This document shows positions 1,243-34,338 of a DNA stretch of 64,000 nucleotides, piece by piece. The position numbers and the translations under genes were made by a program. Position 1 is the first letter of the stretch. Each line of letters starts with the position of its first letter. The notes beneath the pieces were generated by a model. The model made no database searches. It worked only from the letters and a program-made list of their open reading frames with translations, and had not been told where the DNA came from. Source of the DNA: Candidatus Dormiibacterota bacterium (GTDB lineage: Bacteria > Chloroflexota > Dormibacteria > Aeolococcales > Aeolococcaceae). The stretch spans positions 128,001 through 192,000 of the forward strand of contig CAVPXI010000013.1 of NCBI GenBank assembly GCA_963709585.1, in the 5' to 3' direction.

Positions 1243-1680
1243 AACTGTAAGCGCTATGTATGCGCTGGACTGCCACAATCTCTGGCTATGAGCGGCGGCA
1301 TCCGTCCTCACTCGCGGAGATTGACGCCTTTTGCAGGAAACGTGATTATTCCCGGTTAGAGCACCACAACCCGTTCGCCCGCCGGCGCCTGACAACTTCG
1401 CAACCGCCCGCCGCGAACTCGACCTGCGCGTCCGTCGGGGAGACAGGACTCGAACCTGCGACCCCTGGTCCCCCAGACCAGTCCTTATTTACCGCCGCGT
1501 GCTGAGTTCGATTTAGAGTGCTTTCGTCGGGAAATGGTTGGAATGACGACTAGAGCAGGTGCGATGGAATCCGTTGGAATTCCGTCAACACGCAGCCACG
1601 TGTACCGGACATTGCTTCCCTCCCCCACCGCTCGAGACTTTGGGCATTCTGACGGCCGTCGCGCGCGTCGAGCATCTGAA
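1243..1680 (-). repeat. Repeat family A copy 1 (left arm + tRNA-Pro 3' core + right arm; att-like junction)
   Basis: AACTGTAAGCGCTATGTATGCGCT...GTCGGGGAGACAGGACTCGAACCTGCGACCCCTGGTCCCCCAGAC...GGAATGACGACTAGAG; homologous to copies at about 6.8, 17.4, 20.8, 26.8 and 34.0 kb. Confidence 0.9.
1434..1481 (-). pseudogene. 3' half of tRNA-Pro(GGG) (anticodon arm, T arm, 3' acceptor strand); att core
   Basis: Reverse complement CTGGT-CTGGGGG-ACCAG-GGGTC-GCAGG-TTCGAGT-CCTGT-CTCCCCGAC; D arm and 5' acceptor strand absent. Confidence 0.85.
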
Positions 1681-1816
1681 GCCGCTGGATCTGGTGACAG
1701 GACGCTCATGTGCGCCAGCGACCATACGCCGATGGCTTCGCAAGCGCCTCTCGAAGGGTGTCCAGCCGTAGATCATTATGGCGTGGGTCGAACACGCGCG
1801 GATTCGTCCCCCACGG

Positions 1817-2410
1817 CTAGCTTCCGGCAGCTGCCCCGCGGCCCGAGCTCAGCCACTCGTCACGGGTGATGGCGTACTCGACCTCACCGTATTCGACGCC
1901 GGGAATGCCGTCAGGGTAATCTGCCGGAAAGCTGCGCACATAGTGCATGCCGAGCGACGTCATCACCGCCTGTGACGGAGTGTTGACCGCAAGTGTCTGG
2001 GCAAAGATGCGGCGCAACCGGATGTCCATGAAGCCGTATCGCATCAGCTCACGCGATCCTTCAGAAGCGAATCCCCGCCGCCAATGGCGGCGCTGGATGC
2101 GATAGCCGAGGTCGGCCTGGTCGGTGCTGTACGGCTGGCCCAGCCCCTCGGGTGGCTGCAGGATCCACCAGCCGACGAAGTCCCGACCGACGAACCCCAC
2201 CCAGAAGCCCAGTCCCGGCACGGTTCCGGCGGCTGCTATGCGGCGCTGATGGGCCTCCTTCACCTCTGCTCGTGTTCGGGCGCCTGGGTTGAGATAGCGC
2301 AACACCTCCGGGTCCGAATCCAGCTCGACCTCGAGCTCGAGGTGTTCATCGGCGAGCGGCACCAGCTCGATGCGGTCGGTGCGGAGTACGGGTTGCGTCA
2401 CGTGCGGCAT
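1817..2410 (-). CDS. GNAT N-acetyltransferase (RimJ/RimL type)
   Basis: LRTDRIEL start, ADLGYRIQRRHWRRGFASEG acetyl-CoA motif, NTPSQAVMTSLGM. Confidence 0.9.
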   Translation of the reverse strand: MPHVTQPVLRTDRIELVPLADEHLELEVELDSDPEVLRYLNPGARTRAEVKEAHQRRIAAAGTVPGLGFWVGFVGRDFVGWWILQPPEGLGQPYSTDQADLGYRIQRRHWRRGFASEGSRELMRYGFMDIRLRRIFAQTLAVNTPSQAVMTSLGMHYVRSFPADYPDGIPGVEYGEVEYAITRDEWLSSGRGAAAGS

Positions 2411-2428
2411 GGTAGTGCCGCTTAAGAG

Positions 2429-2650
2429 GTGGCCGAGAGCAACCGCGAACTGACCGCGTCCGTCAGGTGGTTCGGAGCCGGCGGGACTGTCGGGGGAGGA
2501 TCGGCACTAACCGTGGTCACGCAGGGCATCCTCGGTGACGACGTCGGATTGCTCCTGGTTCTTGCGTTGGTTGGCATGGGCGCTTCCTTCGCCATCGCCG
2601 GACGGACGACGTCACGGCACCGACCGAACGCACGACGCCAGGTACGGTAG
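2429..2650 (+). CDS. Small two-TM hypothetical protein
   Basis: 73-aa ORF with two hydrophobic stretches. Confidence 0.35.
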   Translation: MAESNRELTASVRWFGAGGTVGGGSALTVVTQGILGDDVGLLLVLALVGMGASFAIAGRTTSRHRPNARRQVR

Positions 2651-2912
2651 CCCCACCGCCGCTGGCGGGCGATGGTTTGCCGCTGGGTACTGGGATGATG
2701 CCGGCGAGGACCTCCCAGTCACGGACTGACCCTGCTAGGTACCGGCGCATTGCCTTCCCAATGATTCGTCGTCCGTGACCGGAGGCCCTTGTTCGGGCAA
2801 TCAGCGGGCGAACGTGACCTGATAGGAGCCTGTGCAAGAGGCCCGTCCCAGTACTGTCCGTCCACCTGCCGCTGACGCACCGACCTCATTCCCCAGGTGA
2901 CGAGGACGAGGT

Positions 2913-3336
2913 ATGACAGAGGTCAGGATCGCACAGAGAACCGAGCGTGTTGTGGTGGGAGTCGATACCCATGCTGACCTTCACGTTGCCGCAGCGCTCG
3001 ACCCGCTTGGGCGCATGCTCGGCCGTCTCGAGGTCGGGACGACCACGCGTGGGTACGCGCAATTGCTCAAGCGGGCGCACACGTTCAGTCCGACAACAAC
3101 ATTTGGTATCGAGGGAACTGGCGCTTACGGCGCTGGCCTGGCTCGTTTCCTCGTCGACGCCGGCTGCGAGGTTATCGAGATCAATCGGCCGGATCGTCGC
3201 GCCCGCCGCGGACATGGCAAGTCGGATCCCATCGACGCCGAGGCAGCAGCGCGATCGGTTGCTCGCTGGTGGACCGCTCTGCATCGCCAAGCGTGACCAC
3301 GACCGGGTCGGCATGATCCGCACGCTCCGGGTCTGA
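2913..3336 (+). pseudogene. Truncated IS110-family transposase (N-terminal DEDD domain only)
   Basis: VVVGVDTHADLH, GIEGTGAYGAGLAR and GKSDPIDAEAAAR motifs; frameshift near 3265 and no C-terminal half. Confidence 0.85.
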
Positions 3337-3519
3337 CCCAACGGTGACATCCACGGCCATGGTGTGAATTCTTTTGCGTCCCCCATAGCCTCCGTGTCCG
3401 CTAACGGGGGCAGCCCACGACGCCTGCAATGCGTGCGCGGAGCGGTATTCGAGAACGGCAAACGTGAGGCTCTAACGAGCGTCCGGCGTCAGTGGACCGC
3501 CGACTCCCCGGATCGGATC

Positions 3520-4227
3520 TCACACCGGGCTGGGTAGTACGGACGGCCCGCCTGGTGGGACCAGCCGATAGCCGGCTCCTCGCACCGCGTGGAGCAGCGG
3601 TTTCAGTTCGGGTGCGTTGATCTTGCGTCGCAGGTACCCGACGTAGACGTCAACGACATTGCTGCCCGGCTCGAAGTCGTACTCCCAGACGTGGTTGAGC
3701 ATCTGCGTGCGTGAGAGCACCTGATGCGGATGTCGCATCAGGTATTCGAGCAACGCCCACTCGCGCGGTGCGAGGTCGATTCTCCTGCCCGCACGCCAGG
3801 CCACCTTGGTGAGCAGGTCGAGCCGGAGATCTTCGACCACGAGTTGATTTGACGTCTGCTGGTCGGCGGACCGGAGAGCGGCGCGAATACGCGCAAGGAG
3901 CTCGTCGAAATCAAAGGGCTTGGTCACGTAGTCGGTCGCCCCGGCGTCAAGCCCCCAGACCTTGTCCTTCACGTCGTCTCTGGCTGTGACGATCACCACC
4001 GGGAGATCCGGCCGGCGGGAGCGCAGCAGGCGTAGCACGGACCGTCCGTCGACGCCGGGGAGCCCAAGGTCGAGGAGCACCAGATCGATGTCCTCCTCAC
4101 CGGCCTCGACTGCAGCCACCGCCTCATCCCCGTCGCGCGCGATCAGAGTCGCATACCCCTCGGCTCGGAGCCCCTTTGAGAGGAACGCCACGATGCCTGC
4201 GTCGTCTTCGACAATAAGGATGTTCAC
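3520..4227 (-). CDS. OmpR-family response regulator
   Basis: ILIVEDD, LLDLGLPG, KPFDFDEL receiver motifs; winged helix NVVDVYVGYLRRKI...VRGAGY. Confidence 0.95.
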   Translation of the reverse strand: MNILIVEDDAGIVAFLSKGLRAEGYATLIARDGDEAVAAVEAGEEDIDLVLLDLGLPGVDGRSVLRLLRSRRPDLPVVIVTARDDVKDKVWGLDAGATDYVTKPFDFDELLARIRAALRSADQQTSNQLVVEDLRLDLLTKVAWRAGRRIDLAPREWALLEYLMRHPHQVLSRTQMLNHVWEYDFEPGSNVVDVYVGYLRRKINAPELKPLLHAVRGAGYRLVPPGGPSVLPSPV

Positions 4228-5690
4228 CGCGCACCATGGTGTTTATTTGACGGCGAGACCGAGTTGATGGACGACGCCGGCAGGACCATGCGTACGGTAC
4301 ATCCCACGCCAGGTGCGCTCTCCAGGTCGGCGCGGCCGCCGTGCGCCTCGGCGATGGCTCGAACGATCGTGAGCCCCAGGCCGGCGCCATGATTCTGACC
4401 AGTGTGGACAAAACGTTGAAACACCGCCGCCTGATCCTCGACGGGAATGCCCGTGCCGGTGTCGGCGACTGCAAAGACAAGCGCGCCGTCGCATGACGCG
4501 CGGAGCGTGATCGAGTTGTCAGGATCGGTGGCGCGGACGGCATTGTCGACCAGGTTGAGGAGCGCCCCTCGGACCTTGTCGAGGTCGATGCTGACGACAG
4601 CGTCGGGCACCGGTTCGAGCGCCCAGTGACGTGGAGCGAGCCCTTGCGCCGAGGTGAAAATGTCGGCCATGAACGAGCGCAGATCGACGGCTTCTGCGTC
4701 GAGGAAGCCGGGCTCCGCGGACTGCCCCAGGAGGAGGAGCTGGTTGACGAGCGCGTTGGTGTGATCGATCTCGTTGATGACCAGAGAGAGCGTGTCGGCG
4801 GCCTCGTCGGGATGATGGATACCCCCGCGTCGCAGGACGTCGAGATGGCCCCGCATCACCGTCAGCGGTGTGCGCAATTGATGGGACACGTCGGAAAGGA
4901 GACGCCGCTGTGAGACGAAGGCAGTCTCGACGCGCTCGAGCATCATGTCGAAGGTCTGCGCTAGCCTGGCCAGCTCATCGTCGGGGCCTTGGTAGTCGAG
5001 GCGCCGGCTCAAGTCGTCGCGGTTGATCGTCGCGGCCGTCTCGGTCAGTTGGGCGAGCGTACGGCGGACGCGCCGCAGGAGCAGGTAGCCCGCCACCACG
5101 GCGATGACGAGCGCACTCCCGGCCTCCCCCGCAACCAACGGCAAGATGGCCGCCACCTGGTCCTGGACGACGCCGAGGTCCACGCCTGCGACGAGTACCC
5201 CGGCGGTATGGCCGCCGGCGAGGATAGGGCTCGCGACCACACGGTAGGTCGTGCCATTGACGAGCACGTCCGCGACCGTCGGACCCGGCGGCGGGCTCGC
5301 CACCCAGCCGCGAACACGAGGAGCCGTCGCCAACACGCTGATGGATGGTGCCGCGCCGACCTCGCGTCCGCCGAGGCCGATGATGAGCACGGTCCCATTC
5401 GGGCGTGGGTTGGTGAGGAGATACGCAGCGCTGAAGGCGAGCAGGTCCTGGCCGGCAGGACGGTGGCTCGCCGCTTGCTGGTATTCGGGCAGCTCCTCCG
5501 TAAGCGCGGCCTGAGCTTCTGCGACCTGGTGGCTCGAGAGGGCCACGTACGTGAGCGCCAGGACGAGACCAATCGTGACCGTGAGGAGGACGGCGTGCGT
5601 GAGGAGCAGGCGCGTCGTCAGGTTGAGCCTTGGTACGGCTCGAGGCGTGACCCGGTTGTCGGTGTCGGTTCGCCAGCGGCCGATCCGCAT
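4224..5690 (-). CDS. HAMP sensor histidine kinase
   Basis: Two TM segments, HAMP domain, H-box SHQLRTPLT, N-box NLVDNA, G-boxes DTGTGI/GAGLGL; 4-nt overlap with the response regulator. Confidence 0.95.
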   Translation of the reverse strand: MRIGRWRTDTDNRVTPRAVPRLNLTTRLLLTHAVLLTVTIGLVLALTYVALSSHQVAEAQAALTEELPEYQQAASHRPAGQDLLAFSAAYLLTNPRPNGTVLIIGLGGREVGAAPSISVLATAPRVRGWVASPPPGPTVADVLVNGTTYRVVASPILAGGHTAGVLVAGVDLGVVQDQVAAILPLVAGEAGSALVIAVVAGYLLLRRVRRTLAQLTETAATINRDDLSRRLDYQGPDDELARLAQTFDMMLERVETAFVSQRRLLSDVSHQLRTPLTVMRGHLDVLRRGGIHHPDEAADTLSLVINEIDHTNALVNQLLLLGQSAEPGFLDAEAVDLRSFMADIFTSAQGLAPRHWALEPVPDAVVSIDLDKVRGALLNLVDNAVRATDPDNSITLRASCDGALVFAVADTGTGIPVEDQAAVFQRFVHTGQNHGAGLGLTIVRAIAEAHGGRADLESAPGVGCTVRMVLPASSINSVSPSNKHHGAR

Positions 5691-5914
5691 GTCAGAGCAG
5701 CTTAGCGATGCGCGTCGGGCATCTTCCAGGGATGGTTCCCTCAGGTGGTCCGCGCGTTGCGTCCGCCATGTGAGCTGCGGATGGGTCTTCGCTGCAGGAA
5801 CCCGATGAGCACACTCGATGAGAGAACTGTCACCCCGGTCTCATGGTGGGCTCACGAGGCGCACGCACGGTTGGTGAAACGCATCAACCAGTGTCCAAAG
5901 GAGGACCAGAGACC

Positions 5915-6541
5915 ATGTTCAAGCGCCAACTCGCCGCCGCCGTCCTATCCGCCGCGATCGGGGGGACCGCCCTCCTCGCCGTCGTCCCCACACGAGCAGC
6001 GACCGGGATCATCCCCAACGGTCACTGCAGTGGAACCAGCCAGTATTCGCTTCAGGTCCAGAAGGAGGACACGGGCCAGATCAGCGTTGACTGGGGTGTC
6101 GACATGACCCGCCATACGGCAGGCGTCGCCTGGCATATCACCGTGGCCGACAACGGGCGTGTGGTCGTCAACACGACGGTGAAGACGATTGCCGATGGAT
6201 CGTTCAGCCTGACGCGGCTCCTTGCGCCGCAGGCCACGAACAACATCACGGCATGGGCGAGCAACCCCATGACGAGGGAGACCTGTTCGACCAGCACCGC
6301 TTCCGTTCCGCCTGCGGTCGCCCCGCCTGCAACGGGACACGCCGTCCCGCCGACGGCTTCGACTCCCTCCACAACCATCGCGCCGTCCCATTCGGGGACG
6401 CCCGCCCATGAAGTTAGGGCTGTCGCAACGAGCCATGCATCCCCGGCGCTCCCGATCGCAGTCGCCATCATCATCCTGGTCGCGGTCGGTGGCGGAGCCT
6501 CATACCTCGCGGTTCGGAACAGCCGGCGCCGATCGGCCTGA
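5915..6541 (+). CDS. Secreted, C-terminally membrane-anchored hypothetical protein
   Basis: AAGGAGG RBS, signal peptide, beta-rich domain with 2 Cys, P/T/S linker, C-terminal TM with basic tail; divergent from the two-component system. Confidence 0.7.
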   Translation: MFKRQLAAAVLSAAIGGTALLAVVPTRAATGIIPNGHCSGTSQYSLQVQKEDTGQISVDWGVDMTRHTAGVAWHITVADNGRVVVNTTVKTIADGSFSLTRLLAPQATNNITAWASNPMTRETCSTSTASVPPAVAPPATGHAVPPTASTPSTTIAPSHSGTPAHEVRAVATSHASPALPIAVAIIILVAVGGGASYLAVRNSRRRSA

Positions 6542-6811
6542 CCGATACCACCTACCGAGAGAGAGTCGCCGCGAACGGCCCCTAAAAATGGCAGCGGCGA
6601 CTTTCTCTCTTGTCGTCAGCCTTGTTCATCACCGCCCAGTGCTCCGATGGGTCTTGGCCCGCCGAGGGTCGCGCGACTTAGAGTGGTTTTGCAGGAAAGA
6701 ACATCAATCAGGGAATGAGGACTAGTCCCTGACAAAGTGGCTGATCCCCGCAAGTTGGAATCGGCTGCAATTGCGTGCCAACGGATGCACTGCAGTGCAA
6801 TGGGCTGCGAA

Positions 6812-6955
6812 TCGGGGAGACAGGACTCGAACCTGCGACCCCTGGTCCCCCAGACTAGTCCTTATTTCCCGCCGAGTGCTGAGTTCGATTTAGACTGCTT
6901 TCGTCGGGAAATGGTTGGAATGACGACTAGAGTGCGCGTTTTGGATTTCGTTGGA
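6812..6955 (-). repeat. Repeat family A copy 2 (tRNA-Pro 3' core 6812-6858 + right arm; canonical left arm absent)
   Basis: TCGGGGAGACAGGACTCGAACCTGCGACCCCTGGTCCCCCAGACTAG...GGGAAATGGTTGGAATGACGACTAGAG. Confidence 0.9.
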
Positions 6956-7003
6956 CTCGCGTGGACATGATGCGGGTACTAGGCACGCAGCGGTCCACCT
7001 TTC

Positions 7004-7402
7004 TCAGCCCCTCGCCAGCACCTCGAAGTCGGCCACGGAGCTGATGTTGACGCTGCCATGCGCGCCGAGCGCGAGTAGGTCCGCGTCCCCGGTCACAAGA
7101 GCATCGGCCGATCCAGTGATGGCTATCGCAAGGATCTGATCGTCGTCAGGATCCCGGCAGACGCGTGGAACCTCAATCGGCGTCACCACCTCGGCAATCG
7201 CCTCGAGCTCGGCTCGCACCGCTGCAGCCCGATCGCTCGCCCAGCCACAAGTCTCCACGAGCACGGCCTCGAGCTCGCCGAGGATCGCGGGACCCATGAT
7301 CAGCGTGTGGTCACCACGGAGGACGTCGTCGAGGAGACGGCGCGGGCGTCCGCCAAAGTGGAGCGCCGACACCAGGACATTGGTGTCGAGGACGACGCGC
7401 AC
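7004..7402 (-). CDS. vapC: PIN-domain toxin (VapC/PIN_3 type)
   Basis: MRVVLDTNVLVSAL, RDPDDDQILAIA and LVTGDADLL PIN motifs. Confidence 0.9.
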   Translation of the reverse strand: MRVVLDTNVLVSALHFGGRPRRLLDDVLRGDHTLIMGPAILGELEAVLVETCGWASDRAAAVRAELEAIAEVVTPIEVPRVCRDPDDDQILAIAITGSADALVTGDADLLALGAHGSVNISSVADFEVLARG

Positions 7403-7663
7403 TCAGCGTGTTGGCTTGCGGCGGGAACGGCTGCGGCGCGATTTCACCGCGGCGACGACGGTGTCTTCGGTCAGGGTGCCGGCAGCCGCTCGTTCTTCTC
7501 CATACGCAAAGAGCTGATCCCATCGTCTGCGTCGCTCCGCGTACTGGCGGAACGCTTCGCGCAAAAGTTCGCTGCGCGTCCGGCCCTCCTGGTGGGCCAG
7601 GCGGTCGACCTCCACCGCGAGCTCTGGTGGGAGCGAGATGGTCACTGTCCCGGTCGTGCGCAT
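7403..7663 (-). CDS. Ribbon-helix-helix (CopG/NikR-like) antitoxin
   Basis: VTISLPPELAVEVDRLAHQEGRTRSELLREA; abuts the PIN gene start. Confidence 0.88.
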   Translation of the reverse strand: MRTTGTVTISLPPELAVEVDRLAHQEGRTRSELLREAFRQYAERRRRWDQLFAYGEERAAAGTLTEDTVVAAVKSRRSRSRRKPTR

Positions 7664-7934
7664 GAACAGGACGATAACACGAAGTCTTACCCGACAGAGC
7701 GGCAGAACGGGTTACGCGCCCCACTCCACCAAAGTCAGGACACCCCAGAGTCTCTATGAAACCCAGGGCGGTGCAAGCCGTTTTGTGGCGTCCGGTGACC
7801 TCCGTCAACATGCGGGACGGGTCGTCGTGCTTCGGCGGGAAGGTCTCCGTCGGGCGTTGAAGAGGAGCGGAGCTGACTAAAAGGCGCACGCGAGTGCGCG
7901 TCGATCTATGCCCTGATGATGAAGGTCTACACGC

Positions 7935-17607: not shown

Positions 17608-17634
17608 CCGTGCAGCGCGTAGAGTGGATGAGCG

Positions 17635-26190: not shown

Positions 26191-26829
26191 CAGAAAGCCT
26201 CGGCCTTCCCCAGGCGCGCCGTCGACTTCCCTGAGAGTCGCCCTCTCAAGGAACAATCGCTCAGATCCTCGGGCCCGGGCGCCACCTCTCGTCCTCGCTT
26301 CATCGCTCCCCACTCACCTCCGCTTTCGTGCAACTGCTTGCGAATCTCTTACGGGCGTTCCGATGTCGAGCGTCGGAAGCACGTTGGAGTCTGACCGCGC
26401 AATCCTGTGCCCGAGTGCAGCGCCACCACCGGGGGACGGACCGCGACTGCTGGTCTCGACATGAACCCCGACACGACCGCGTAGAACGACTGCGCGGTGT
26501 TCTCATCCAGCACCGAGCGATAGATGAACCCCCCGGAAAACTGGAGACTCTGGGGTGTCCAAAGTTCAGCCACCGACAGCCGAGGGTCGAGCGGCGGAGC
26601 GCCGCCAGGGTGTCCGCCCGCACGGCTGCCCCACAGTCCGAGCCGTGGACCTCTCCCCGATCGATCGTGCTGAAGCAGCTGTCCATCTTCGAGAACTGTT
26701 CGAGCATCTCGCGGATGCCGCCGATTTCGTGCTGCCACGCGACCCAAGTCGATCTCATCGCCGGGAGCGTTGGCGATTGCTCCCCGCGCCGTCACGCCGG
26801 CCAGGTGGAGCGCATAGACGGGCGCGGCC

Positions 26830-27258
26830 AAAACTGTAAGCGCTATGTATGCGCTGGACTGCCACAATCTCTAGGCATGAGCAGCGGCATCCGGCCTCGA
26901 CTGTGGGGAATGATGCCTTTTGCAGGAAAAGTCATCATTCCTGGTTAGAGCACTGCACAACGTGGGCGCGCAGGCGCCCAAACACACCGCGCAACCTCTC
27001 GTTGCGAACTCAAGTCGGGCGTCCGTCGGGGAGACAGGACTCGAACCTGCGACCCCTGGTCCCCCAGATTAGTCGTCATTTCCCGATGAGTGCTGAGTTC
27101 GATTTAGACTGGTTTTGTGGGAATTGGTTGGAATGACGACTAGAGCACGTGTGATGGATTCTTTTGGAATCGCGTGCACACGCTCGGCGAATTGTGCCGC
27201 CTCCCTTCGCGGCTCTCCCCAACCGCTCTCCCGACTCTATCGACTTTGGGCATTCTGG
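26830..27258 (-). repeat. Repeat family A copy 5 (full; core 27025-27072)
   Basis: Same left arm, tRNA-Pro core and right arm; distal GACTTTGGGCATTCTG shared with copy 1. Confidence 0.9.
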
Positions 27259-27402
27259 TCTGCCACGGAGACCATCGGCAGCAACAGCGGCTGGCGTGCC
27301 CCGTGACGTGACCGGGCGCTCGTCTGGGAGGCGATCATGGTCCTCGAATGGTTCCGCACTCATGGGCGGTGAACATCGTCGGGAGCGAACCCGATAAAGA
27401 GG

Positions 27403-28645
27403 TCAGCGGTCGCCCGACGGAGCCAGCTCGGAGAGGCGTCGATGAAGAAATCGGCGCTCGGCGTCTGTCGGCGCCAGCGCAAGCGCTTCGCGATATGCCG
27501 TTTGCGCCTCTGCGTAGCGCGTCAGGCGTCTGAACAAATCGGCACGCGTCGCGGGCAGCAGGTAGTAACCGGACAGGACTTCCGCTTGTTCCAGCTCGAC
27601 AAGCAGCGCGAGTCCCGCCGCCGGCCCGTCGGCCATCGCGACAGCTACGGCGCGGTTGAGCAGCACAACCGGCGTCGGTGCAATCTCGCTCAGGCGGTCA
27701 TAGAGGGCCACGATCTCCCGCCAGTCCGTCTCGTCGGAGGTCCGAGCCTGGGCATGGCAGGCTGCGATCGCGGCCTGCAACTGGTACGGCCCCGGTCGTC
27801 GATGCCGCATGGCTCGATCGAGGAGCATGCACGCCTCGTCGATCCCGGCTCGATCCCAGAGCGCGCGATCTTGGTCCGCCAGCGTCACCAACTCGCCCTC
27901 GCCGTCGATGCGTGCCTGGCGCCTCGAAGTCCTGAAGGAGCAGGAGGCTGAGCAACCCAAGGGCCTCTGGCTCATCGGGCATAAGCTCCGCCAGCAACCG
28001 TCCCAGACGGATCGCCTCCGAGCAGAGTTCCTTGCGAATCAGCTCGTCGCCGGCGCTCGCGCCGTAGCCCTCGTTGAAAAGCGCGTAGATCACTGCCAGC
28101 ACCGCGCGCAGCCGCTCCTGCAGATGGCGCGCATCCGGCACGCGATATGGAATGCGTGCCTCGACAATCTTGCGCTTGGCGCGCGTCAACCGCTTCGCCA
28201 TCGTCTCCTGAGGGAGCAGGAAGGCCCGTGCTATCTCGGGTGTCGTCAAACCCGCGAGTGTGCGAAGCGTCAGCGCCACCTGAGCCTCGACCGGGAGCGC
28301 TGGGTGACAGCACGTGAACATCAGCCGAAGCCGATCGTCCTCAATCCCGCTGTCGTTATCATCGTTGTCAGGCGCTGTGGGTCCCGTCACCCCAACCTCC
28401 CTCCGCTTGGCTTCGCCCACTGTTTCTCGTCGCAACCGGTCCAGCGCACGGTTTCGCGCAGTCGTTTTCAACCAGGCTGCAGGAACTCGATGGAATCCCA
28501 TCGCGTGGCCAGCGAGCGATCGCCCGCTCGAATGCATCTTGGGCGCACTCTTCGGCCAGGTCCCAATTGCCGGTAACGTGGATGAGGTAGGCGACGACGC
28601 GACCCCAATTTGCCCGGAAGGCCTCGTCGACCGCCGCCTGCGCAT
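27403..28645 (-). pseudogene. ECF sigma factor with C-terminal TPR-like extension (DUF6596 type), two frameshifts
   Basis: DLAEECAQDAF, DDRLRLMFTCCHPAL, YQLQAAIAACH, PVVLLNRAVA spread over three frames. Confidence 0.85.
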
Positions 28646-28648
28646 CGG

Positions 28649-28990
28649 CTAAAGCGGCCACACCGGTCGGACCTCAATCGTGCCGGAGCGGGCGCCCGGA
28701 TTCCTAGAAGCGATCTCGATCGCCTCGTCGAGATCCGCACAGTCGACGACGTAGAAGCCGGCGATCTGCTCCTTGGTCTCGGCAAAAGGACCGTCGGCGA
28801 CCACGAGGCCGTCGTCGCGGACCCTCACCGTCGTCGAGAGCGTCGTCTCTCGGAGACGCTCGCGCGCGACCAAAACTCCTCGGGCCTCCATCTCGTCCTG
28901 GAAAGCCATGAACGCAGCGTATTCCGTCGCGACAGCCTCGTCGCTCCGTTCGGCGCTCTCGTCGACATAGACCAACATCGCATATCGCAT
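28649..28990 (-). CDS. YciI/DGPF-domain protein
   Basis: MRYAMLVY...DGPFAETKEQIAGFYVVDCADLDEAIEIA...IEVRPV. Confidence 0.92.
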   Translation of the reverse strand: MRYAMLVYVDESAERSDEAVATEYAAFMAFQDEMEARGVLVARERLRETTLSTTVRVRDDGLVVADGPFAETKEQIAGFYVVDCADLDEAIEIASRNPGARSGTIEVRPVWPL

Positions 28991-29079
28991 CGGGTCCTCC
29001 TTCAAGTTGTTCGCTGGCCGCTGCCAAACAACCGCGAGCGGCCGGAGGCCCCAAGAGGCCCCCGGCGACCGCCGCGTCA

Positions 29080-29472
29080 TTACAGCGTGACGAAAAACAC
29101 CACCTGCTCGTCGATGATCTCCTGGTTCTCGTCGAGTCGGTAGAGGCGAGCCCCCTGAAGCGTCATCTCAGGCGCATCAGGCCCGAGCTTCACGCGCGAG
29201 GTCACCTGCAACAGCGCCCGCGTCTGATCACCGACCGCGGAGTTCACCGTGGTCGCGCCCGGCAGCACGGCCTGACCGAACTGCATCAGACCTTGCATGT
29301 AGTCCTCGATCCCCGTGGTGTCGACCTTCGGCGCTTCGGGATCGACACTCGTGACGGAAACGTGGACATCGGCTGCAAGCGCGGTGCGCGCCAAGTCGTA
29401 GTCGTGCTTGCCCCACGCGGCAACGTGAGCCCGAGCGACCTCAATGGCGGTTGCTTCCTGATTCGACGACAT
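29080..29472 (-). CDS. SnoaL/NTF2-like protein
   Basis: VARAHVAAWGKHDYD...LAADV pattern; AAGGAG RBS. Confidence 0.75.
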   Translation of the reverse strand: MSSNQEATAIEVARAHVAAWGKHDYDLARTALAADVHVSVTSVDPEAPKVDTTGIEDYMQGLMQFGQAVLPGATTVNSAVGDQTRALLQVTSRVKLGPDAPEMTLQGARLYRLDENQEIIDEQVVFFVTL

Positions 29473-30064
29473 AGCGACTCTCCTTGTGAGTAGCGGTTTG
29501 GTTGGTCTTCGGTCCTAAGACGAACGGGAACATCGGGAAATGGACATATCGGGCGTCTGACTTGCCAGCAACGGGCGGAGGGCGCCGTCACTGGCCACCA
29601 GGGCGAAGGCATGCAGGGGTCCCCGCCGGTGGGCGCCGTTTCTCGCACCGCGGATGCAACACAGGGTCGACGGCGCCGGATTGTCTGGGGTGGCGCTACC
29701 TGGTGCGTGAACCACGAGAGGACAACAACGCTGGCGTCGCGCACCGTGCTCGATGCTGGCTTCACGAAGGCCAAGCATCCCGGCCACCCCTGCTACTTCA
29801 TGGTGCCAGGCGGCTGAGCCTCCAGCCTCTCCCGGGACGGATCACGGCTTAGCAAACGTGACCGTCAAACCGGGGCACGCCCCCGCGCCGGTCCTTCGCC
29901 CTGAGTGGCCCGGGGCGGGACCTTGCACGTAGACGAGGTGGTGTCGTTGTGACGCACGGTGTTTACCCTGGGTGAGCGTGGCATCATGTGACTGGCGAGA
30001 TGAGCCGTGAGCACCGGCAGGTCGATGGCAACTGATTGAGCATGACCGCTGTCGTTTGCGCTGC

Positions 30065-31082
30065 TCAGCCGGGAAGGGTAATCGGGAGCCCGAAGCTAGA
30101 GAGCACACCGTTGTCGAACCTGGTGATGGCGGAGATCCGGTCCCCGGCCAGTGTCACCACCTGCAGACCGACCGCGTGCAGCACGGCACTATGTGGGTCG
30201 GGCCGGTACAGGCCGAAGGCCAGTTCGCCGTTGGCCCGGGTCGGGACTAGGCGGAACCTGCGTCCCGTCCGGAAGATCGCGGCGAAGAAACGGGTCACCA
30301 CGTCGAGCCCCTGGTACTCCAACGGCAGGGGCGGCATGGCCACCAGGACGTCCTCGGTGAGCAGCGCGACCAACCCATCCAGGTCGCCGCTGGCATAGGC
30401 CTGCGTGAGCTTTTCAACGAGCCGGCGTTCAACGAGGGAGCCAGGTGCGGGCGGTGGCTCATGCAGCCAGGTCGAAGAATGCCGGCTGCGCAGCGTGGCG
30501 CGTGCGCGTTTCAGCGCGCTGGTCACCAACTCCTCGCTCAACTCGAGGATGTTGGCGACCTCGCCGGCGCGAAAGCCCAGGACGTCGCGGAGGATGAGCA
30601 CGACTCGCTGCCGGGGCGGCAGCAGCTGCAGTGCGGTCACGAACGCCAGCGAGATGGCTTCCCGTGAACTCGTAGCGCGCCTCAGGCCCGGGCTCGCGGT
30701 CGACCAGCCCCTGTAGGAGCGTGTCCGGGTACGGCTCCAGCCAGAACACCTCGCCCAGGCCCGTAGGCTCGGGAACCTCAAGGTGCAGCACGGGCAAGTC
30801 CACGTGCGGACGCCGTCGCGCGGCGCGCAGCGCGTTGAGGCAGCGGCTGGTCGCGATCCGATACAGCCAGGTGCGCATCGAGGCACGCCCCTCGAAGGCT
30901 TCCAGCCCTCGCCACGCCGCCAGCAGTGTTTCCTGGAGCGCGTCCTCGGCGTCCTGCACTGACGCCAGCATCCGGTAGCAGTGGACCTGCAGCTCGGCCA
31001 GGAACGGGTCGACGAGCCGGCGGAACGCCTCCTCGTCTCCAGCGCGGGCCCGATCGATCAGGTCTGTAGTCAGCAACTCCAC
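30065..31082 (-). pseudogene. SigG-like ECF sigma factor with SnoaL domain, frameshift near 30665
   Basis: ELQVHCYRMLASVQDAEDALQET, WLEPYPD; then ISLAFVTALQLLPPRQR...DLDGLVALLTEDV. Confidence 0.85.
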
Positions 31083-31249
31083 CCGTCATCGCCTCGTCTC
31101 ATGGTTGCTCTGGCGCCTGCACCGGTACTGACCCCGGGCAGCGGGGAAACTGGGCGCTCGTGGCCGCCCAGTGTATCGGCGCTTCGGTGTCTAACCAAGC
31201 GATGAGCCAACTCACCTCTTGGGCCGGCACGAGCAGAAGGAGTCAATCC

Positions 31250-31601
31250 ATGGCGACGTTCTTGTTCTCCTACCGGGTGCCGCGCACCCCCCTCGCGCAG
31301 GTGCTGGCAGCACTCGACGAGCCGGCCCGCGAGACACGTATGGCTGCGTGGAATGCGTGGTTCGAAGGGACTCGGCGACCGCCTCGTGCAGCGGGGAAAC
31401 CCGGTCAACGACGCGCAAGCGCTTGGCAAATGCACCGCTGCCACCAGGATCGGGGGCTATTCGTTGGTGTCCGCCAACCTCGATGCGGCGGTCGCGCTGG
31501 CGAAGGGATGCCCAGGTTTGGAGTGGGGCGGCGGCGTCGAAGTCGGCGAGTTCATCGAGATCGGACAGCCGCAGCGCACCCAGGCGGAGGCGCGGCCGTG
31601 A
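31250..31601 (+). pseudogene. YciI-like protein, frameshift near 31370
   Basis: MATFLFSYR...AWNAWFEG then LGDRLVQRGNPV...IGGYSLVSANLDAAVALAKGCP...VEVGE. Confidence 0.75.
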
Positions 31602-31613
31602 CCAACCGAGTTC

Positions 31614-33056
31614 GTGCGTCGTGGTTCCGCCACAGTCGCGCACGACCGTAGGCGATCGGTGCGCATTTGGACGCTGGCGCTCACGTCGTTGGCGGCGTTC
31701 ATGGTGTCGCTGGACGCGCTGGTCGTCGTCACTGCTCTGCCGTCGATTCAACGCGACCTCCGCGCTGACCTGTCCACCCTTGAGTGGACGCTCAACGCGT
31801 ACACACTCGCGTTCGCGGCGGGCATCGTCACCGCCGCCGCGCTCGGAGACCGCTTCGGCCGCCGCCGGGTGTTCGCCGGAGGCCTGGCGCTGTTCAGCGT
31901 GGCCTCGGCCGCGTGCGCGCTGGCGCCGACACCTGAGGCGCTGATCGCTGCCCGGGCCGTGCAGGGATTGGGAGCCGCCGTGGTGACCCCGCTTGCCCTG
32001 ACCATCCTGGCGAGCGCCTTCCCTGCCGAGCGGCGCGGCATGGTCCTGGGGCTCTGGGGAGGCATTACCGGGCTCGCCGTTGCCGGTGGCCCGCTGGTCG
32101 GCGGTGGGGTGACCCAGGGCCTCGATTGGCACTGGATCTTCTGGGTCAACGTGCCCATCGGAGTGCTGGCGACGCTGCTGGCGCTCACGCGGCTGCCGGA
32201 GAGTCGCGGGCCGGCATCGCGTCTCGACCCCATCGGGGCGCTGCTGGTGACCGCGGGCGCAGTGAGCATCGCATGGGGTCTGATCCGCGCCAACGGCCCG
32301 GGGTGGGGGAGCGGAGAGGTCATCGGTGCCCTGGGCGGCGGGGCCGTGCTCATCTTCGGGTTCATCCTCTGGGAGCGCCGAGCCCCGGCCCCGATGCTGC
32401 CTCTCGAGCTCTTCCGCATCAGAGCCTTCGCCGCCGCAAACGCAACCGGATTCCTGATGTTCGGGTCGATCTTCTCAGCCGCTTTCCTCATATCGCAGTA
32501 CTTCCAATTCGCCCTCGGCTACTCACCCGTGGCGACCGGACTGCGCTTCCTGCCGTGGACAGCCACGCCGATCGTGATCGCGCCGCTCGCCGGTGCTCTG
32601 TCCGACCGGATCGGCAGGCGGCCGCTGATGGCCACGGGCTTGTTCCTGCAGGCTGGCGGACTGCTTTGGATAGCCACTCACGCGACCACAAGTCTCGGCT
32701 ACGGGCAGCTCGTTATCCCAATGGTTGTCGCCGGGATCGGGATCTCGATGGCGATCCCCACTACGCCGACGGCGGCGCTGAGCGCTGTCGCGCCGCAGGA
32801 CATGGGCAAGGCATCCGGGGTCCAGAACACGCTGACCCGCTTCGGCAGCGTGTTCGCCGTTGCGGTCGCTGGCGCCGTCTTCGCCGGCTCCGGGCATCTG
32901 GGCTCGGCGTCAAGTTTTACCAACGGCTTCCGCCCAGCTCTTACCGTGGTCGCCGGAATCTCGGCATTGGGTGCGATCTCCGCGCTCGCTGTCGCGGAGC
33001 GCAGACGCGGCGCTGCCGAAGCGAAACCGGAGCCGGCACACGCCATGGCGTCATGA
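31614..33056 (+). CDS. DHA2-family MFS efflux transporter
   Basis: FMVSLDALVV, LGDRFGRRRVF, WHWIFWVNVPIG. Confidence 0.92.
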   Translation: MRRGSATVAHDRRRSVRIWTLALTSLAAFMVSLDALVVVTALPSIQRDLRADLSTLEWTLNAYTLAFAAGIVTAAALGDRFGRRRVFAGGLALFSVASAACALAPTPEALIAARAVQGLGAAVVTPLALTILASAFPAERRGMVLGLWGGITGLAVAGGPLVGGGVTQGLDWHWIFWVNVPIGVLATLLALTRLPESRGPASRLDPIGALLVTAGAVSIAWGLIRANGPGWGSGEVIGALGGGAVLIFGFILWERRAPAPMLPLELFRIRAFAAANATGFLMFGSIFSAAFLISQYFQFALGYSPVATGLRFLPWTATPIVIAPLAGALSDRIGRRPLMATGLFLQAGGLLWIATHATTSLGYGQLVIPMVVAGIGISMAIPTTPTAALSAVAPQDMGKASGVQNTLTRFGSVFAVAVAGAVFAGSGHLGSASSFTNGFRPALTVVAGISALGAISALAVAERRRGAAEAKPEPAHAMAS

Positions 33057-33110
33057 GTAACCGACGATGAGAATCTATCCAAAGCGCGACCGCTGGTTGA
33101 AAGGTTCCTG

Positions 33111-33893
33111 ATGACAAAGCACCGAACGGGAACACGCGGGGAGTGGCTCGCTGCGCGCACCGAGCTGCTCGCGAAGGAGAAGGAACTCACCCGCCAGAGC
33201 GACGAGCTCGCGCGTCAGCGGCAAGAGCTGCCGTGGGTCAGGCTGGACAGGGAGTACGCCTTCGACACGGACGAGGGGAGCGCGTCCTTCGCCGAGCTCT
33301 TCCGCGGACGCTCGCAGCTTGCTCGTCTACCACTTCATGTTCGGACCCGACTTCACCGCCGGCTGCCTTGCATGCTCGGCGATCGCTGACGGTTTCAACG
33401 GCTTCGCGATTCACCTTGCGAACCACGACGTGATGCTCTGGGCCGTATCCCGCACGCCACTCGACAAGCTTCAGGCGTACAAGCGGCGCATGGGCTGGAG
33501 CTTCCGTGGGCGTCGTCGAACGACAACGACTTCAACTTCGACTTCAACGTCTCCCTCACGGAGGAGCAGCAGCGCTCCGGATCCGAGTACAACTTCAGCA
33601 AAGTGCCCCCTCAACCGCCTGCCGAGGTGCCCACGGAGGGTCCGTTGGCGGCGTGGGCGGCCACGACGGGCACGGACTGGCCCACGTACACACGGGAACG
33701 GCCCGGGATGAGCGCGTTCGCGCTCGAGGACGGCTTCGTCTACAACACGTAGGCCGCGTACGCGCGCGGGCTCGACGCGCTCTGGGGCATGTACCAATGG
33801 CTCGACCGAGCGCCGCGCGGGCGAAACGAGCTGCGAGCCGAGGGCGATCCCCTCAACTTCTTCCACCGACACGACGAGTACGACGGCGACTGA
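33111..33893 (+). pseudogene. DUF899 thioredoxin-like protein, two frameshifts plus in-frame TAG
   Basis: EWLAARTELLAKEKEL...ELPWV; VYHFMFGP; QWLDRAPRGRNE; TAG at 33750-33752. Confidence 0.85.
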
Positions 33894-33993
33894 CGTCAGC
33901 CGAGCCCGGCAGGCGCGTTGCGACGGCGGTACTGAAGGCCGACGGGACTCGGTACGTCACCCTGGTCGTTGAAGCGCGCGGACGAGCGCAGTT

Positions 33994-34338
33994 AAAACTG
34001 TAAGCGCTATGTATGCGCTTGCCTGCCACAATCTCGTCCTATGAGCAGCGGCATCCGGCCTCAACCGTCGGAGTTGATGCCTTTTGCGGGAACAGCCATT
34101 ATTCCCGGTTAGAGCACTACACTCCGTGGCGCGTAGGCGCCCATCACACCTCGCTACCTCCTCTACGCGAACTCAAATTGCGCGTCCGTCGGGGAGACAG
34201 GACTCGAACCTGCGACCCCCTGGTCCCCCAGACTAGTACTTATTTCCCGCTGCGGGTTGCATTCGACTTAGAGTGCTTTCGTCCGGAAATGGTTTGGAAT
34301 GACGACTAGAGGACGGATGATGGAATCCGTTGGAATCG
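33994..34338 (-). repeat. Repeat family A copy 6 (full; core 34188-34236)
   Basis: AAAACTGTAAGCGCTATGTATGCGCT...GTCGGGGAGACAGGACTCGAACCTGCGACCCCCTGGTCCCCCAGACTAG...GGAATGACGACTAGAG. Confidence 0.9.

Follow-up and report, generated by a model that had tools for sequence, protein, structure and literature searches.

A tRNA-Pro(GGG)-anchored array of integrase-less modules separated by att-type junctions in an uncultured soil Dormibacterota bacterium

The 64-kb window analyzed here lies on C13, a 212-kb contig of an assembly (G000; 24 contigs, 88.8% complete) from an uncultured soil Dormibacterota bacterium, and it carries six copies of a unit built around a segment of tRNA-Pro(GGG), with blocks of genes between them (Table 1). 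A repeat search recovered all six as direct copies on the + strand, bearing out the co-oriented units of a preliminary description, whose core positions (1434, 6812, 17364, 20955, 27025, and 34188) fall within 5 nt of the measured starts. The units are 75-93% identical in pairwise comparison as direct repeats. Their 48-nt core corresponds to the 3′ part, from the anticodon stem to the 3′ end, of an intact tRNA-Pro(GGG) located further along the contig (C13 c[211509-211583]), and ARAGORN detected no tRNA within the window itself. Conservation of the right arm extends over ~105 nt in all six units and then ends abruptly; with up to 2 mismatches allowed, the right-arm sequence TGGTTGGAATGACGACTAG, a 19-mer, occurs six times in the window, every time on the + strand, and 0 times in each of 100 shuffled windows.

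The arms had been described as uniform, which holds for the right arm, whereas the left arm belongs to one of two integrase-less types, to an integrase-proximal type, or is missing. Within the window, it is present in five of the six units, rather than in four as first thought. The type-1 left arm (~195 nt) is found in units 1, 4, 5, and 6, while unit 2 has a type-2 left arm (~150 nt), which recurs at C13:56275, 111049, and 198646 and at the tRNA locus of a second contig, C14; unit 3 is the only window unit without a left arm.

The spacing of the junctions (3.6-10.6 kb) and the unrelated gene content of the intervening blocks are both as originally proposed. Module 2 has no left arm at its right end, and Module 3 is split by an independent IS110-family insertion, the site being uninterrupted in the relative G052. 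In Module 5, 3.2 kb is 96.8% identical to C14:8724-11923. The window covers the first 29.7 kb of the 36.6-kb last module, the next unit lying outside it at C13:198798. A lower-GC patch of this module, at 40.3-46.4 kb, carries JAB, HTH-ImmA-like, and excisionase-like HTH_17 genes.

Table 1. Junction units and cargo modules in the 64-kb window (window coordinates)
Feature	Position	Strand	Content
Unit 1	1240..1591	+	type-1 left arm 1240-1434, core 1435-1482, right arm 1483-1591
Module 1 cargo	1592..6658		GNAT acetyltransferase 1820-2410 (-); unassigned ORFs; no recombinase
Module 1 two-component pair	3523-4227; 4227-5690	-	OmpR-type response regulator; histidine kinase
Unit 2	6659..6968	+	type-2 left arm 6659-6811, core 6812-6859, right arm to 6968
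Module 2 cargo	6969..17368		GH15/trehalase-like, LuxR-AAA regulator (934 aa), MFS, ferritin-like, DUF302
Module 2 TA pair	7007-7402; 7406-7663	-	vapC PIN; RHH antitoxin; directly after right arm
Unit 3	17369..17525	+	core (from 17369) and right arm only; 2-4 substitutions in core
Module 3	17526..20758		small unassigned ORFs, split by insertion sequence
IS110-family insertion sequence in Module 3	18948-20417		transposase 19132-20388 (+)
Unit 4	20759..21111	+	type-1 left arm, core about 20955-21003 (one base deleted), right arm
Module 4 cargo	21112..26828		ABC ATPase and permease-like ORF, HisKA_3 kinase, LuxR-type response regulator, F420H2-dependent quinone reductase (Ddn family)
Unit 5	26829..27181	+	type-1 left arm, core 27026-27073, right arm
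Module 5 cargo	27182..33992		YCII, ECF sigma-SnoaL, MFS transporter, DUF899 fragment
Unit 6	33993..34347	+	type-1 left arm, core 34189-34237 (one base inserted), right arm
Last module	34348..64000		epoxide hydrolases, thioredoxin-like, ECF sigma, ABC/FtsX, others

BLAST of the six units against the whole genome revealed 16 co-oriented units on C13, with cores from 11768 to 198798, in an array that ends in the intact tRNA-Pro(GGG), downstream of der; as had been predicted, this gene is on the minus strand and to the right of the array, 19.5 kb past the window end. A second array, on C14, consists of 5 units followed by tRNA-Pro(GGG) at c[71628-71703]. When up to 3 mismatches are allowed, the same 19-mer occurs 20 times forward and 0 times reverse in the assembly, on C13 and C14 only (2 of 24 contigs), which rules out genome-wide scatter in random orientation. 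Among the 21 units of the assembly, 10 have a type-1 left arm, 4 a type-2 left arm, and six none, with one left arm of each type beside the two tRNAs. Modules range from 3.6 to 41 kb, with genes in both orientations and regulators of their own. Some junctions are degraded, C14:13465 being truncated within the core and other cores carrying substitutions and 1-nt indels, which weighs against the explanation we favor below. The six units are recombination-site junctions between horizontally acquired blocks, which were inserted successively into a tRNA-Pro gene and form a very long row, and their interpretation as att-type junctions (P′-core-P) of a tRNA-anchored array is supported.

The blocks had also been described as lacking an integrase, and domain searches agree. 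A six-frame search with PF00589 gave no match on C13 at E ≤ 0.01, and PF00589 and PF00239 together detected no tyrosine or serine recombinase on C13 or within 250 kb of the C14 array. PF00589 has 11 matches in the assembly, the only one on C14 being at 321.5 kb, and PF00239 has one, on C4, with none on C13 or C14. Pfam scans of 300 of the 329 gene calls, which left out 28 C14 calls beyond about 64 kb and one gene at C13:126556-129051, yielded the single IS110 transposase as the only transposase- or recombinase-type match.

A tyrosine integrase of matching specificity had been expected elsewhere, and it is found in relatives, not in this assembly. The closed single-contig genome G019 has the same architecture, with about 14 units over 153 kb, and a 332-aa integrase whose start lies 116 bp from one of the cores in the array. 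Orthologues with at least 87% identity adjoin the core in 8 of 41 other genomes of the genus and are absent from 33 of 41 at E ≤ 1e-30. Six of the eight (G004, G005, G008, G016, G017, and G043) have the integrase directly beside the intact tRNA, the 87%-identical protein of G008 directly following it, within a backbone that encodes an HTH regulator, a TraA_Ti-like relaxase/helicase, and ParA; in these relatives, the integrase is part of a relaxase-bearing mobilizable element at the tRNA. The integrase-proximal arm shares a ~55-nt region, at 75-84% identity, with both integrase-less left-arm types. The integrase is at most 31% identical to any phage integrase searched and has no recognizable arm-binding domain, the latter weighing against our preferred explanation. 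Its best match in G000, 30% identical, is a tRNA-Gly integrase on C8, tblastn against both G000 arrays gave nothing better than E = 1.5, and the array as assembled has no capacity for site-specific recombination.

Gain or loss of a module at a core is seen directly on comparing the two contigs. C13:193532-198848 and C14:66361-71679 are 97.05% identical over 5.3 kb, ending in a core, beyond which C14 continues with the tRNA 5′ half and then der. On C13, by contrast, this core is followed by a right arm and 12.7 kb of cargo with no integrase, the tRNA being reached after a type-1 left arm and a further core. A 45-nt core stretch is identical in all three sequences compared. The difference is a clean 12.7-kb integrase-less insertion with the crossover inside the core, and this newest module, adjoining the tRNA, has a complete type-1 arm. 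Since both contigs end in der-tRNA-Pro and their der genes are 85% identical in DNA (roughly 95% in protein, by eye), the bin probably mixes two related populations; if so, the 12.7-kb difference is one between genomes, and homologous recombination via the flanks could yield the same structure. No excised circle or empty site for the window modules was observed in public runs, represented by short Logan contigs only.

Thirteen blocks (at least 1 kb, at least 88% identity) are common to the G000 arrays and those of five relatives, and gene order across junctions is not conserved, since 0 of the 13 cross one. Block ends coincide with a unit in 7 of 26 cases against 1.19 expected, a number attained in none of 2000 permutations. 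Module 50348-52503 of C14 is present in its entirety in G057 (94% identity), between two units and beside other neighbors, and shared modules are 90-98% identical to those of relatives, compared with 80-87% for the der flank. The modules are units of inheritance, common to species in different contexts. The repeat motif is present in 35 of the 42 genomes of this Dormibacterota genus, totaling 178 matches against 14 for a reversed control pattern; a search of 185,579 species genomes gave 73 exact matches, about 69 of them in Dormibacterota MAGs, and one of IMG/VR gave 0. Sixty-five junctions from other MAGs comprise 30 of type 1, 14 of type 2, 2 of the integrase type, and 19 with no or another left arm.

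Given the directly established anatomy of the array, its tRNA anchor, its lack of recombinases, and the cognate integrase and helper element in relatives, the locus is probably a tandem site-specific accretion island of CIME-like, non-autonomous modules with complete attP-type sites and an integrase from elsewhere. Each junction would be a complete or partial attP-type site, reading left arm, core, right arm from left to right, in which the left arm would be P′ and a property of the module to its left, and the right arm, with its TGGAAT-type repeats and near-invariant 19-mer, would be P and a property of the module to its right. Strand exchange would occur within the 48-nt core, whose sequence is that of the tRNA 3′ half. 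A circle bearing left arm, core, and right arm could recombine at the tRNA core or at any resident core, and its entry would rebuild the tRNA and displace older modules away from it. The candidate recombinase is the Xer-like tyrosine integrase specific to this genus (about 332 aa), which in some relatives is encoded by the relaxase-bearing integrative mobilizable element immediately beside the tRNA. Most modules, and all in this assembly, have no integrase but keep both arms; they would be non-autonomous, CIME-like or satellite-like elements that rely on this integrase acting in trans or, once accretion has taken place, in cis. We infer that the modules are mobilized in trans and that integrase-less modules were themselves excised and integrated, not merely formed by decay; the arms may bind the integrase or accessory proteins.

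Alternatively, the junctions could be fossil scars only, left by autonomous integrase-bearing arrivals that later lost their integrase and transfer genes, the integrase-less form never having been mobile, which we consider unlikely but deserving of weight. Decay is the route of CIME formation described in the CIME literature (PMC5704250), G000 has no cognate integrase, several units are truncated or have no left arm, and one G019 unit has an integrase N-terminal remnant beside it, so that at least some integrase-less modules arose by decay. However, 284 kb of G000 arrays contain no integrase or backbone remnant (tblastn, E > 1), and the newest C13 module lacks an integrase with its type-1 arm complete. 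Moreover, the two integrase-less left-arm families have sharp ends and unrelated cargo and account for 44 of the 65 junctions elsewhere, and the genus holds about 178 junction motifs versus 8 integrases. It seems improbable that the ~350-bp units act as portable homology, with RecA-dependent gain, loss, and shuffling and a site-specific step for the first insertion only. This would accommodate the direct repeats, the mosaic nature of shared modules, and the block beside the 12.7-kb difference, which at 97% identity versus 85% for der looks as if a long donor segment had recombined in, but repeats of 350 bp at 75-90% identity are poor RecA substrates, and the sharp unit boundaries, the near-invariant 19-mer amid variable flanks, the homology to the integrase-proximal arm, and the strict co-orientation with the tRNA are left unexplained.

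We give very little credence to a true integron-like platform, with a resident integrase, a fixed attI-like site, and promoterless cassettes captured and expressed. Many co-oriented recombination sites do stand in one array, with the integrase at one end in some genomes, and the vapBC pair adjoining units is reminiscent of superintegron TA cassettes, but the integrase scores 36.8 bits with the integron-integrase model TIGR02249 against a cut-off of 265 and is absent from most relatives, and the modules have the size, two-stranded gene layout, and regulators noted above. Because it travels with a relaxase/ParA backbone 86-100% identical in protein across species, the integrase is the element's, not a platform's. 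The label integron-like, used initially, thus fails as a statement of membership: a platform integrase is lacking, the sites are tRNA-derived attP sites of ~350 bp, and the modules are multi-kb and self-regulated. Least credible of all is a dispersed tRNA-derived MITE-like or REP-like repeat, or an assembly artefact: the unit is a short non-coding sequence, the assembly is a MAG, and the summed depth of the unit in soil contigs is far above that of the cargo, but all copies share one orientation on two contigs, with a tRNA at the end of each array, and the architecture recurs in closed G019 and in MAGs with several isolate-name prefixes.

Taken as a tandem accretion island, the locus invites comparison with CIMEs, known cases of which comprise one to a few elements regarded as decay products. 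As described in a review, CIMEs of the ICESt1/ICESt3 family of Streptococcus have no integration or transfer genes and are bounded by the att sites of an ICE/IME family (PMC5704250, whose reference list includes the primary papers Pavlovic 2004 and Bellanger 2011). The likeness lies in the tandem arrangement at a target gene 3′ end, beside which an integrase-bearing relative integrates (PMC5704250). Unlike CIMEs, the present array has 16 junctions on one contig over at least 200 kb and, in this assembly, is free of decay remnants; it also has two conserved integrase-less arm families with unrelated cargo throughout the genus, tRNA-Pro(GGG) as its target, and an Xer-like integrase.

The repeat here is a ~350-bp two-armed site, whereas that of the Dehalococcoides ssrA islands is reportedly a short direct repeat. 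Those islands, 16 of 31 of which carry an integration module, are read as integrative mobilizable elements and as a major source of strain-level gene content (McMurdie et al. 2011, PMC3146451). Shared features are the many islands at one site-specific target in a Chloroflexi-related lineage (PMC3146451); the target described there is tmRNA, not tRNA, and the integration module occurs in about half of the islands and in none in this assembly. In Prochlorococcus, islands are reported to hold tandem elements split by partial tRNA copies, with newcomers displacing older ones, scattered partial tRNAs and degraded elements, and ecologically relevant cargo (Hackl et al., 10.1101/2020.12.28.424599). 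The tRNA-adjacent position, the tandem elements, and the intervening partial tRNA copies resemble our array, and tycheposons are by definition integrase-carrying, with replication modules (10.1101/2020.12.28.424599). By that description, our array differs in that integrase and replication genes are missing from nearly all modules, which nonetheless keep full-length arms.

Chromosomal (super)integrons likewise present a long co-oriented site array with unrelated cargo, TA genes, and one recombinase for many units, but no IntI, attC, or attI/Pc platform is found here, and the modules are multi-gene and self-regulated. Actinomycete elements of the pSAM2 type use a tyrosine integrase and an identity segment from the tRNA-Pro anticodon loop to the 3′ end, and the likeness, drawn from description, is this tRNA-Pro target segment, the phylum being different. 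pSAM2 is autonomous, and we know of no long integrase-less arrays formed from it. Tandem accretion is a known route of island growth, which here would have operated at an unusual scale and almost without integrase genes.

Six co-oriented units, all on the plus strand, were recovered from the window by repeat search, in agreement with the preliminary description. Each holds as its core the 3′-terminal 48 nt of tRNA-Pro(GGG), a segment reaching back to the anticodon stem, followed by a right arm with three to four TGGAAT-type repeats and a near-invariant 19-mer, TGGTTGGAATGACGACTAG. With up to 2 mismatches allowed, this 19-mer matches six sites in the window and none in 100 shuffles; it is exact in 12 of 20 units of the assembly. 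In a consensus profile of 20 units, conservation stays high from the core across ~105 nt of right arm and then drops abruptly, while the left arm of type 1 begins just as abruptly ~197 nt ahead of the core; these limits on both sides define a full unit of ~350 bp with sharp ends, even if some junctions of the assembly are degraded. ARAGORN found no tRNA gene inside the window, a gathering-threshold Rfam scan of the window placed no family in the units (its sole match, Ms_AS-4, lies inside an IS110 element), and a promoter and terminator scan of positions 20000-35000 returned no site at the arms and fewer sites than shuffles. In units 1, 5 and 6, ATG-initiated ORFs of 81-98 aa extend from the left arm through the core into the right arm, but the many 1-nt indels in the unit alignment led us to reject a coding reading.

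BLAST of the six units against the whole assembly (3.52 Mb, 24 contigs, 65% G+C, 88.8% complete, 1.2% contamination) extended the array to 16 co-oriented units on C13, the contig whose positions 128001-192000 make up the window. It ends, as the preliminary description had predicted, at an intact tRNA-Pro(GGG) on the minus strand to its right, directly downstream of der (engA) and 564 bp from the contig end; since the first C13 unit already has a left arm, the array may extend past the contig start. A second array, of five units on contig C14, also ends at a tRNA-Pro(GGG), such that both contigs present the direct, co-oriented repeats of a tRNA 3′ end with the intact tRNA at the array end that characterize accretion islands. 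At up to 3 mismatches, the 19-mer has 20 forward and no reverse matches in the assembly, all on C13 and C14, against one for a reversed control pattern. The scatter in random orientation that had been named as a refuting outcome did not occur, and the single orientation together with the clustering on 2 of 24 contigs rules out a MITE- or REP-like dispersed repeat. Tandem accretion, as these arrays show, can reach an integron-like scale.

Coordinates of the features of the tRNA-Pro(GGG) arrays and of associated elements (window unit positions are core starts, C13 unit positions those of the cores; C4, C7, C8, C13 and C14 are contigs of the assembly)
Feature	Sequence	Position	Strand	Remark
Unit 1	window	1435	+	type-1 left arm
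Unit 2	window	6812	+	distinct type-2 left arm, ~150 nt
Unit 3	window	17369	+	without left arm
Unit 4	window	20955	+	type-1 left arm
Unit 5	window	27026	+	type-1 left arm
Unit 6	window	34189	+	type-1 left arm
Array units	C13	11768, 15220, 56402, 59403, 66127, 90529, 111201, 112981, 122575, 129435, 134812, 145370, 148956, 155026, 162189, 198798		co-oriented
Array units	C14	13465 (truncated), 17964, 50391, 52359, 56561		second array
tRNA-Pro(GGG)	C13	211509-211583	-	array end
tRNA-Pro(GGG)	C14	71628-71703		array end
Segment, ~650 bp	window	2683-3333		single copy in window
ORF overlapping this segment	window	2889-3461	-	no family match
vapC (PIN) and RHH antitoxin	window	7007-7663		directly after right arm of unit 2
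Unit-plus-vapBC block	C13	111049-112100
Unit-plus-vapBC block	C14	17964-18466
IS110-family IS	window	18948-20417		1470 bp
IS110 transposase	window	19132-20388
Ms_AS-4 (sRNA, Rfam)	window	20001-20082	-	inside IS110
IS110 copy	C14	312653-314121		≥99.8% identical
IS110 copy	C7	92758-94228		≥99.8% identical
Lower-GC patch	window	40383-46344		0.60 at 43-45 kb
Prok-JAB protein	window	41858-42403	-	in lower-GC patch
HTH_3 + Peptidase_M78, ImmA/RmrA/CapP-like	window	42885-44072	+	396 aa, missed by GC3 caller
HTH_17, excisionase-like	window	46186-46344	+	53 aa, in lower-GC patch
41-kb module (loci L001-L003)	C13	15220-56402		outside the window
Duplicated block pair	C13	12459-14659, 124230-126430
Duplicated block pair	C13	102701-107238, 180570-185112
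Duplicated block pair	C13	120388-122563, 157577-155402
Related backbone	C8	85767-91987		other integrase
Related backbone	C4	315235-319865		other integrase

The modules between consecutive units range from 3.6 to 41 kb, and carry genes on both strands with their own regulators. Their cargo is of the ordinary accessory kind, metabolic and regulatory: transporters of the MFS and ABC types, P-type ATPases, oxidoreductases (F420-dependent and others), universal stress proteins, two-component systems and regulators of the LuxR, TetR and ECF families. Genes were called by a GC3-based script (226 on C13 and 103 on C14:1-90000), and a Pfam scan took in 300 of these 329 calls, leaving out 28 on C14 beyond ~64 kb and C13:126556-129051. 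Within the 300 calls, the IS110 transposase is the only mobility gene. Six-frame searches of the assembly gave 11 matches to PF00589, with none on C13 and one on C14, at 321.5 kb beside tRNA-Gly, and a single PF00239 match, on C4; by six-frame PF00589 and Pfam of gene calls, no module of the assembly holds an integrase, a primase or a helicase. The IS110 itself is ruled out as the recombinase of the array, being a 1470-bp insertion sequence with near-identical copies elsewhere in the genome, and its target site is uninterrupted in a relative, G052. Neither a defence island nor a phage or satellite describes the cargo: the matches of 69 proteins in PADLOC were limited to an RmrA/CapP-like HTH-peptidase and to ABC and TPR proteins of a generic kind, those of 21 proteins in PHROGs to an excisionase-like HTH and one family of unknown function, and the 19-mer has no match in IMG/VR.

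Several features of the cargo merit mention in their own right. The lower-GC patch lies within a 36.6-kb module and may be what is left of a further mobile element, or else a module for regulation or defence. The ~650-bp segment near the start of the window is multicopy in relatives at 88-94% identity (three copies in G010, four in G016, two in G057), as if it were a small mobile element. The unit-plus-vapBC block, present twice more in the assembly, recurs in at least 12 genomes of the genus at 82-90% identity; by analogy with toxin-antitoxin genes in other islands, vapBC beside units may stabilize the array. The 41-kb module encodes a [NiFe]-hydrogenase (small and large subunits), PFOR-like oxidoreductase subunits, GAPDH, malic enzyme and an aldehyde dehydrogenase with DUF779, together with several universal stress proteins and a GAF-kinase-GNAT-CoA-ligase fusion of 1234 aa, thus placing energy-metabolism genes of a trace-gas-oxidising group in a mobile-type module. 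Finally, the multi-kb blocks duplicated within C13 are 92.7-97.7% identical, one of them inverted, which points to recent duplication or repeated cargo acquisition.

Direct evidence for gain or loss at a core, which the preliminary description had anticipated, comes from the comparison of the two tRNA loci. C13:193532-198848 and C14:66361-71679 are 97.05% identical over 5.3 kb, the core included. Past the core, C14 continues into the tRNA 5′ half and der. In C13 the core is followed by a right arm and then by 12.7 kb that contain seven genes, none for a recombinase; a type-1 left arm and a further core precede the tRNA. The C14 tRNA locus is composed of the left part of C13:198798 and the right part of C13:211510, with a 45-nt core identical in all three; occupied and unoccupied alleles (C13 and C14) therefore differ by this 12.7-kb module with the switch in their common core, as in accretion islands, although the contigs may come from two populations. 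A circular integrase-less module that integrates at the tRNA, or is excised from it, is expected to leave just this structure.

The der flanks (C13:211584-212147 and C14:71704-73300) are only 85% identical in DNA and roughly 95% in protein by eye, the C13 fragment being open to the contig end with one frameshift near its 3′ end, and the C14 core region has no duplicate on other contigs of the assembly. C13 thus probably derives from a second, related population in the bin, the alternative for the two der-tRNA-Pro(GGG) loci being a duplication of the locus; array blocks 97% identical beside an 85% flank imply recent exchange whether there was one population or two. No truly empty attB was found in the genus. 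The closed genome G051 (locus L120, G051:C1:315368-318114) has neither a match to the motif nor the integrase described below, yet its tRNA-Pro is followed by a type-1 arm and, at a distance of 2.7 kb, by a degenerate core. Public sequencing runs, all stored as Logan contigs, contained at most 0.31 of the sampled words of the sequence, and four of them compared with window 1200-21150 gave short contigs with a summed depth of 29-141 in the first two of four unit-holding bins and 0-36 in the others. One contig of run X4 joins 17420 to 21021 (skipping 3600, side 54, with 14 other letters between) and would fit loss of module 3, but it is not counted as evidence because the right arms are alike and likeness was set at 92.

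The modules also behave as units between genomes. We compared the C13 and C14 arrays with those of five relatives (G019, G003, G020, G052, G057), retaining blocks of at least 1 kb and 88% identity, and found that none of 13 shared blocks crosses a junction, so that the conserved gene order across junctions that would have spoken against modularity was not seen. Seven of 26 block ends fall at a unit against 1.19 expected, a number reached in 0 of 2000 permutations, and the blocks are arranged in a different order from genome to genome. In G057 a 94% copy of the C14 module 50348-52503 lies between two units whose neighbours are unrelated; window module 3 recurs in G052 at 94-98%, without the IS110, and C14:13497-18120 in the same genome at 94%. 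Since no relative is collinear with window 1-20000 over more than ~2 kb, the cargo is largely species-specific.

The unit itself is widespread in the genus. Several copies occur in all 24 sampled same-genus genomes, and 15 of 16 genomes of the neighbouring family, a count that takes in the unpublished G027 and G036, match over the tRNA alone. The motif is found in 35 of 42 genus genomes, with 178 hits summed against 14 for the reversed control and the highest number, 20, in the present assembly. The exact 19-mer has 73 matches in 185,579 species genomes, ~69 of them in records titled Candidatus Dormibacterota, Dormibacteraeota or Dormibacteria (titles counted by hand); three lie on short contigs, of 9-12 kb, in bins assigned to Saccharimonadales or Micrarchaeaceae and are taken to be mis-binned.

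A matching tyrosine integrase, sought elsewhere at the suggestion of the preliminary description, lies next to core copies in relatives and not in the assembly studied here, whose closest match shares 30% identity with it. In G019, a closed genome, ~14 co-oriented units follow tRNA-Pro(GGG) at 2177129-2177203 and take up 153 kb, or 4.6% of the chromosome, and a 332-aa tyrosine recombinase starts 116 bp from a core within the array, transcribed away from it. Orthologues at least 87% identical occur in 8 of 41 other genus genomes, the remaining 33 having no match at E≤1e-30. In G008 the gene, 87% identical to that of G019, directly follows the tRNA; the same adjacency to the intact tRNA, within a conserved backbone, holds in G004, G005, G016, G017 and G043, and G007 has the gene at a contig end. 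The recombinase therefore stands beside the tRNA in six of eight genomes and within the array in G019, as expected of an accretion island. It is Xer-like (best NCBIfam model XerA, 100.8 bits against a cut-off of 220) and at most ~30% identical to any phage integrase among 50,697 records; beyond the genus, 299 phylum-sample genomes from 170 other genera yielded no match at E≤1e-60, a search that had no positive control and shows little. Besides small ORFs, the backbone encodes ParA, a TraA_Ti-like relaxase/helicase of 685 aa and an HTH regulator, and at the protein level it is 86-100% identical across these species; as the chromosomal flanks are only 80-87% identical in DNA, it looks like a currently spreading integrative mobilisable element. 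The present assembly has related backbones (helicase 62-66% identical) with other integrases, at tRNA-Gly(GCC) on C8 and tRNA-Leu(CAA) on C4.

This element clarifies the arms. In the sense of the tRNA, the order of an autonomous element is core, P′, int, cargo, right arm, core; an integrase-less module has a left arm in the place of P′ and int and is otherwise laid out alike. Each junction thus consists of one module's P′ arm and the next module's P arm. Over ~55 nt, the 116 bp that separate core and integrase resemble the integrase-less left arms of both types at 75-84% identity, and the first 38 nt of this stretch match the truncated C14 unit at 95%. Judged by this homology, the arms are att arms. 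Among 65 junctions of other MAGs with complete flanks, 30 have a type-1, 14 a type-2 and two the integrase-type left arm, and 19 none or another; the core is recognisable in 58 of the 65, a set that, having been picked by exact 19-mer, is uninformative on the conservation of that motif.

The best-supported reading is tandem accretion by a genus-specific integrase, the integrase-less modules being non-autonomous, CIME-like elements. By the definition of CIMEs in PMC5704250, such elements keep attL and attR of an ICE/IME family and lack integration and transfer genes; here, arms bound the modules, the left arms share homology with the helper's integrase-proximal arm, and PF00589, PF00239 and Pfam searches of the 300 calls revealed the IS110 only. 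The architecture also matches the Dehalococcoides ssrA islands, where 16 of 31 have integration modules (PMC3146451), and the Prochlorococcus tRNA islands, in which new elements push older ones inward and partial tRNAs lie scattered (10.1101/2020.12.28.424599). Tycheposons have their own integrase and a replication module, unlike the modules of this assembly, although the relatives' helper has a relaxase/helicase. The earlier label “integron-like” fails as a statement of membership on integrase, sites and cassette structure: the integron-integrase model TIGR02249 scores the integrase at 36.8 bits against a cut-off of 265; in place of a fixed IntI and attI platform, the integrase rides a relaxase/ParA element absent from 33 of 41 relatives; and instead of short, mostly single-gene, promoterless cassettes in one orientation with a terminal attC there are 3.6-41 kb modules with ~350-bp sites holding half a tRNA. 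What differs from the known systems is the scale, the near-absence of integrases and the conserved integrase-less arm families.

That integrase-less modules move as such is favoured by the lack of decay remnants in 284 kb of array in the assembly, by two recurrent integrase-less arm families, each with unrelated cargo, and by the integrase-less module at the tRNA-proximal, newest position; against it stand an integrase N-terminal remnant beside one G019 unit, the degraded junctions, the absence of the integrase from the assembly, and the failure to see a circle or an empty site in public runs available as short contigs. Homologous recombination between units may also contribute to the shuffling. 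We consider it possible, though on balance doubtful, that the integrase-less modules are no decay products but form a dedicated lineage of non-autonomous multi-gene “cassettes” with their own conserved attP arms (two sharp-ended integrase-less P′ families), outnumbering the integrase ~20:1 in the genus. A rare Xer-like integrase on a mobilisable element would insert and excise them and pass them between species, the tRNA-Pro locus being a functional analogue of a chromosomal superintegron. If the dedicated-cassette reading is true, at least 16 modules over at least 200 kb would have been built from tRNA-type att sites, the array making up 4.6% of a closed relative's genome and up to 8% of the bin.

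Dormibacterota are abundant, uncultured bacteria of soil and peat, and a full-text literature search for genomic islands in them gave only unrelated papers. The tRNA-Pro locus gathers much of their variable gene content in one place, and since this content is almost wholly different between species while the junctions are conserved, it constitutes a defined, testable system for cargo capture by integrase-less elements, with an integrase of 332 aa, a site of ~350 bp and a near-invariant motif of 19 nt. It also offers a simple sequence tag by which the flexible genome of these bacteria can be recognised in metagenomes.
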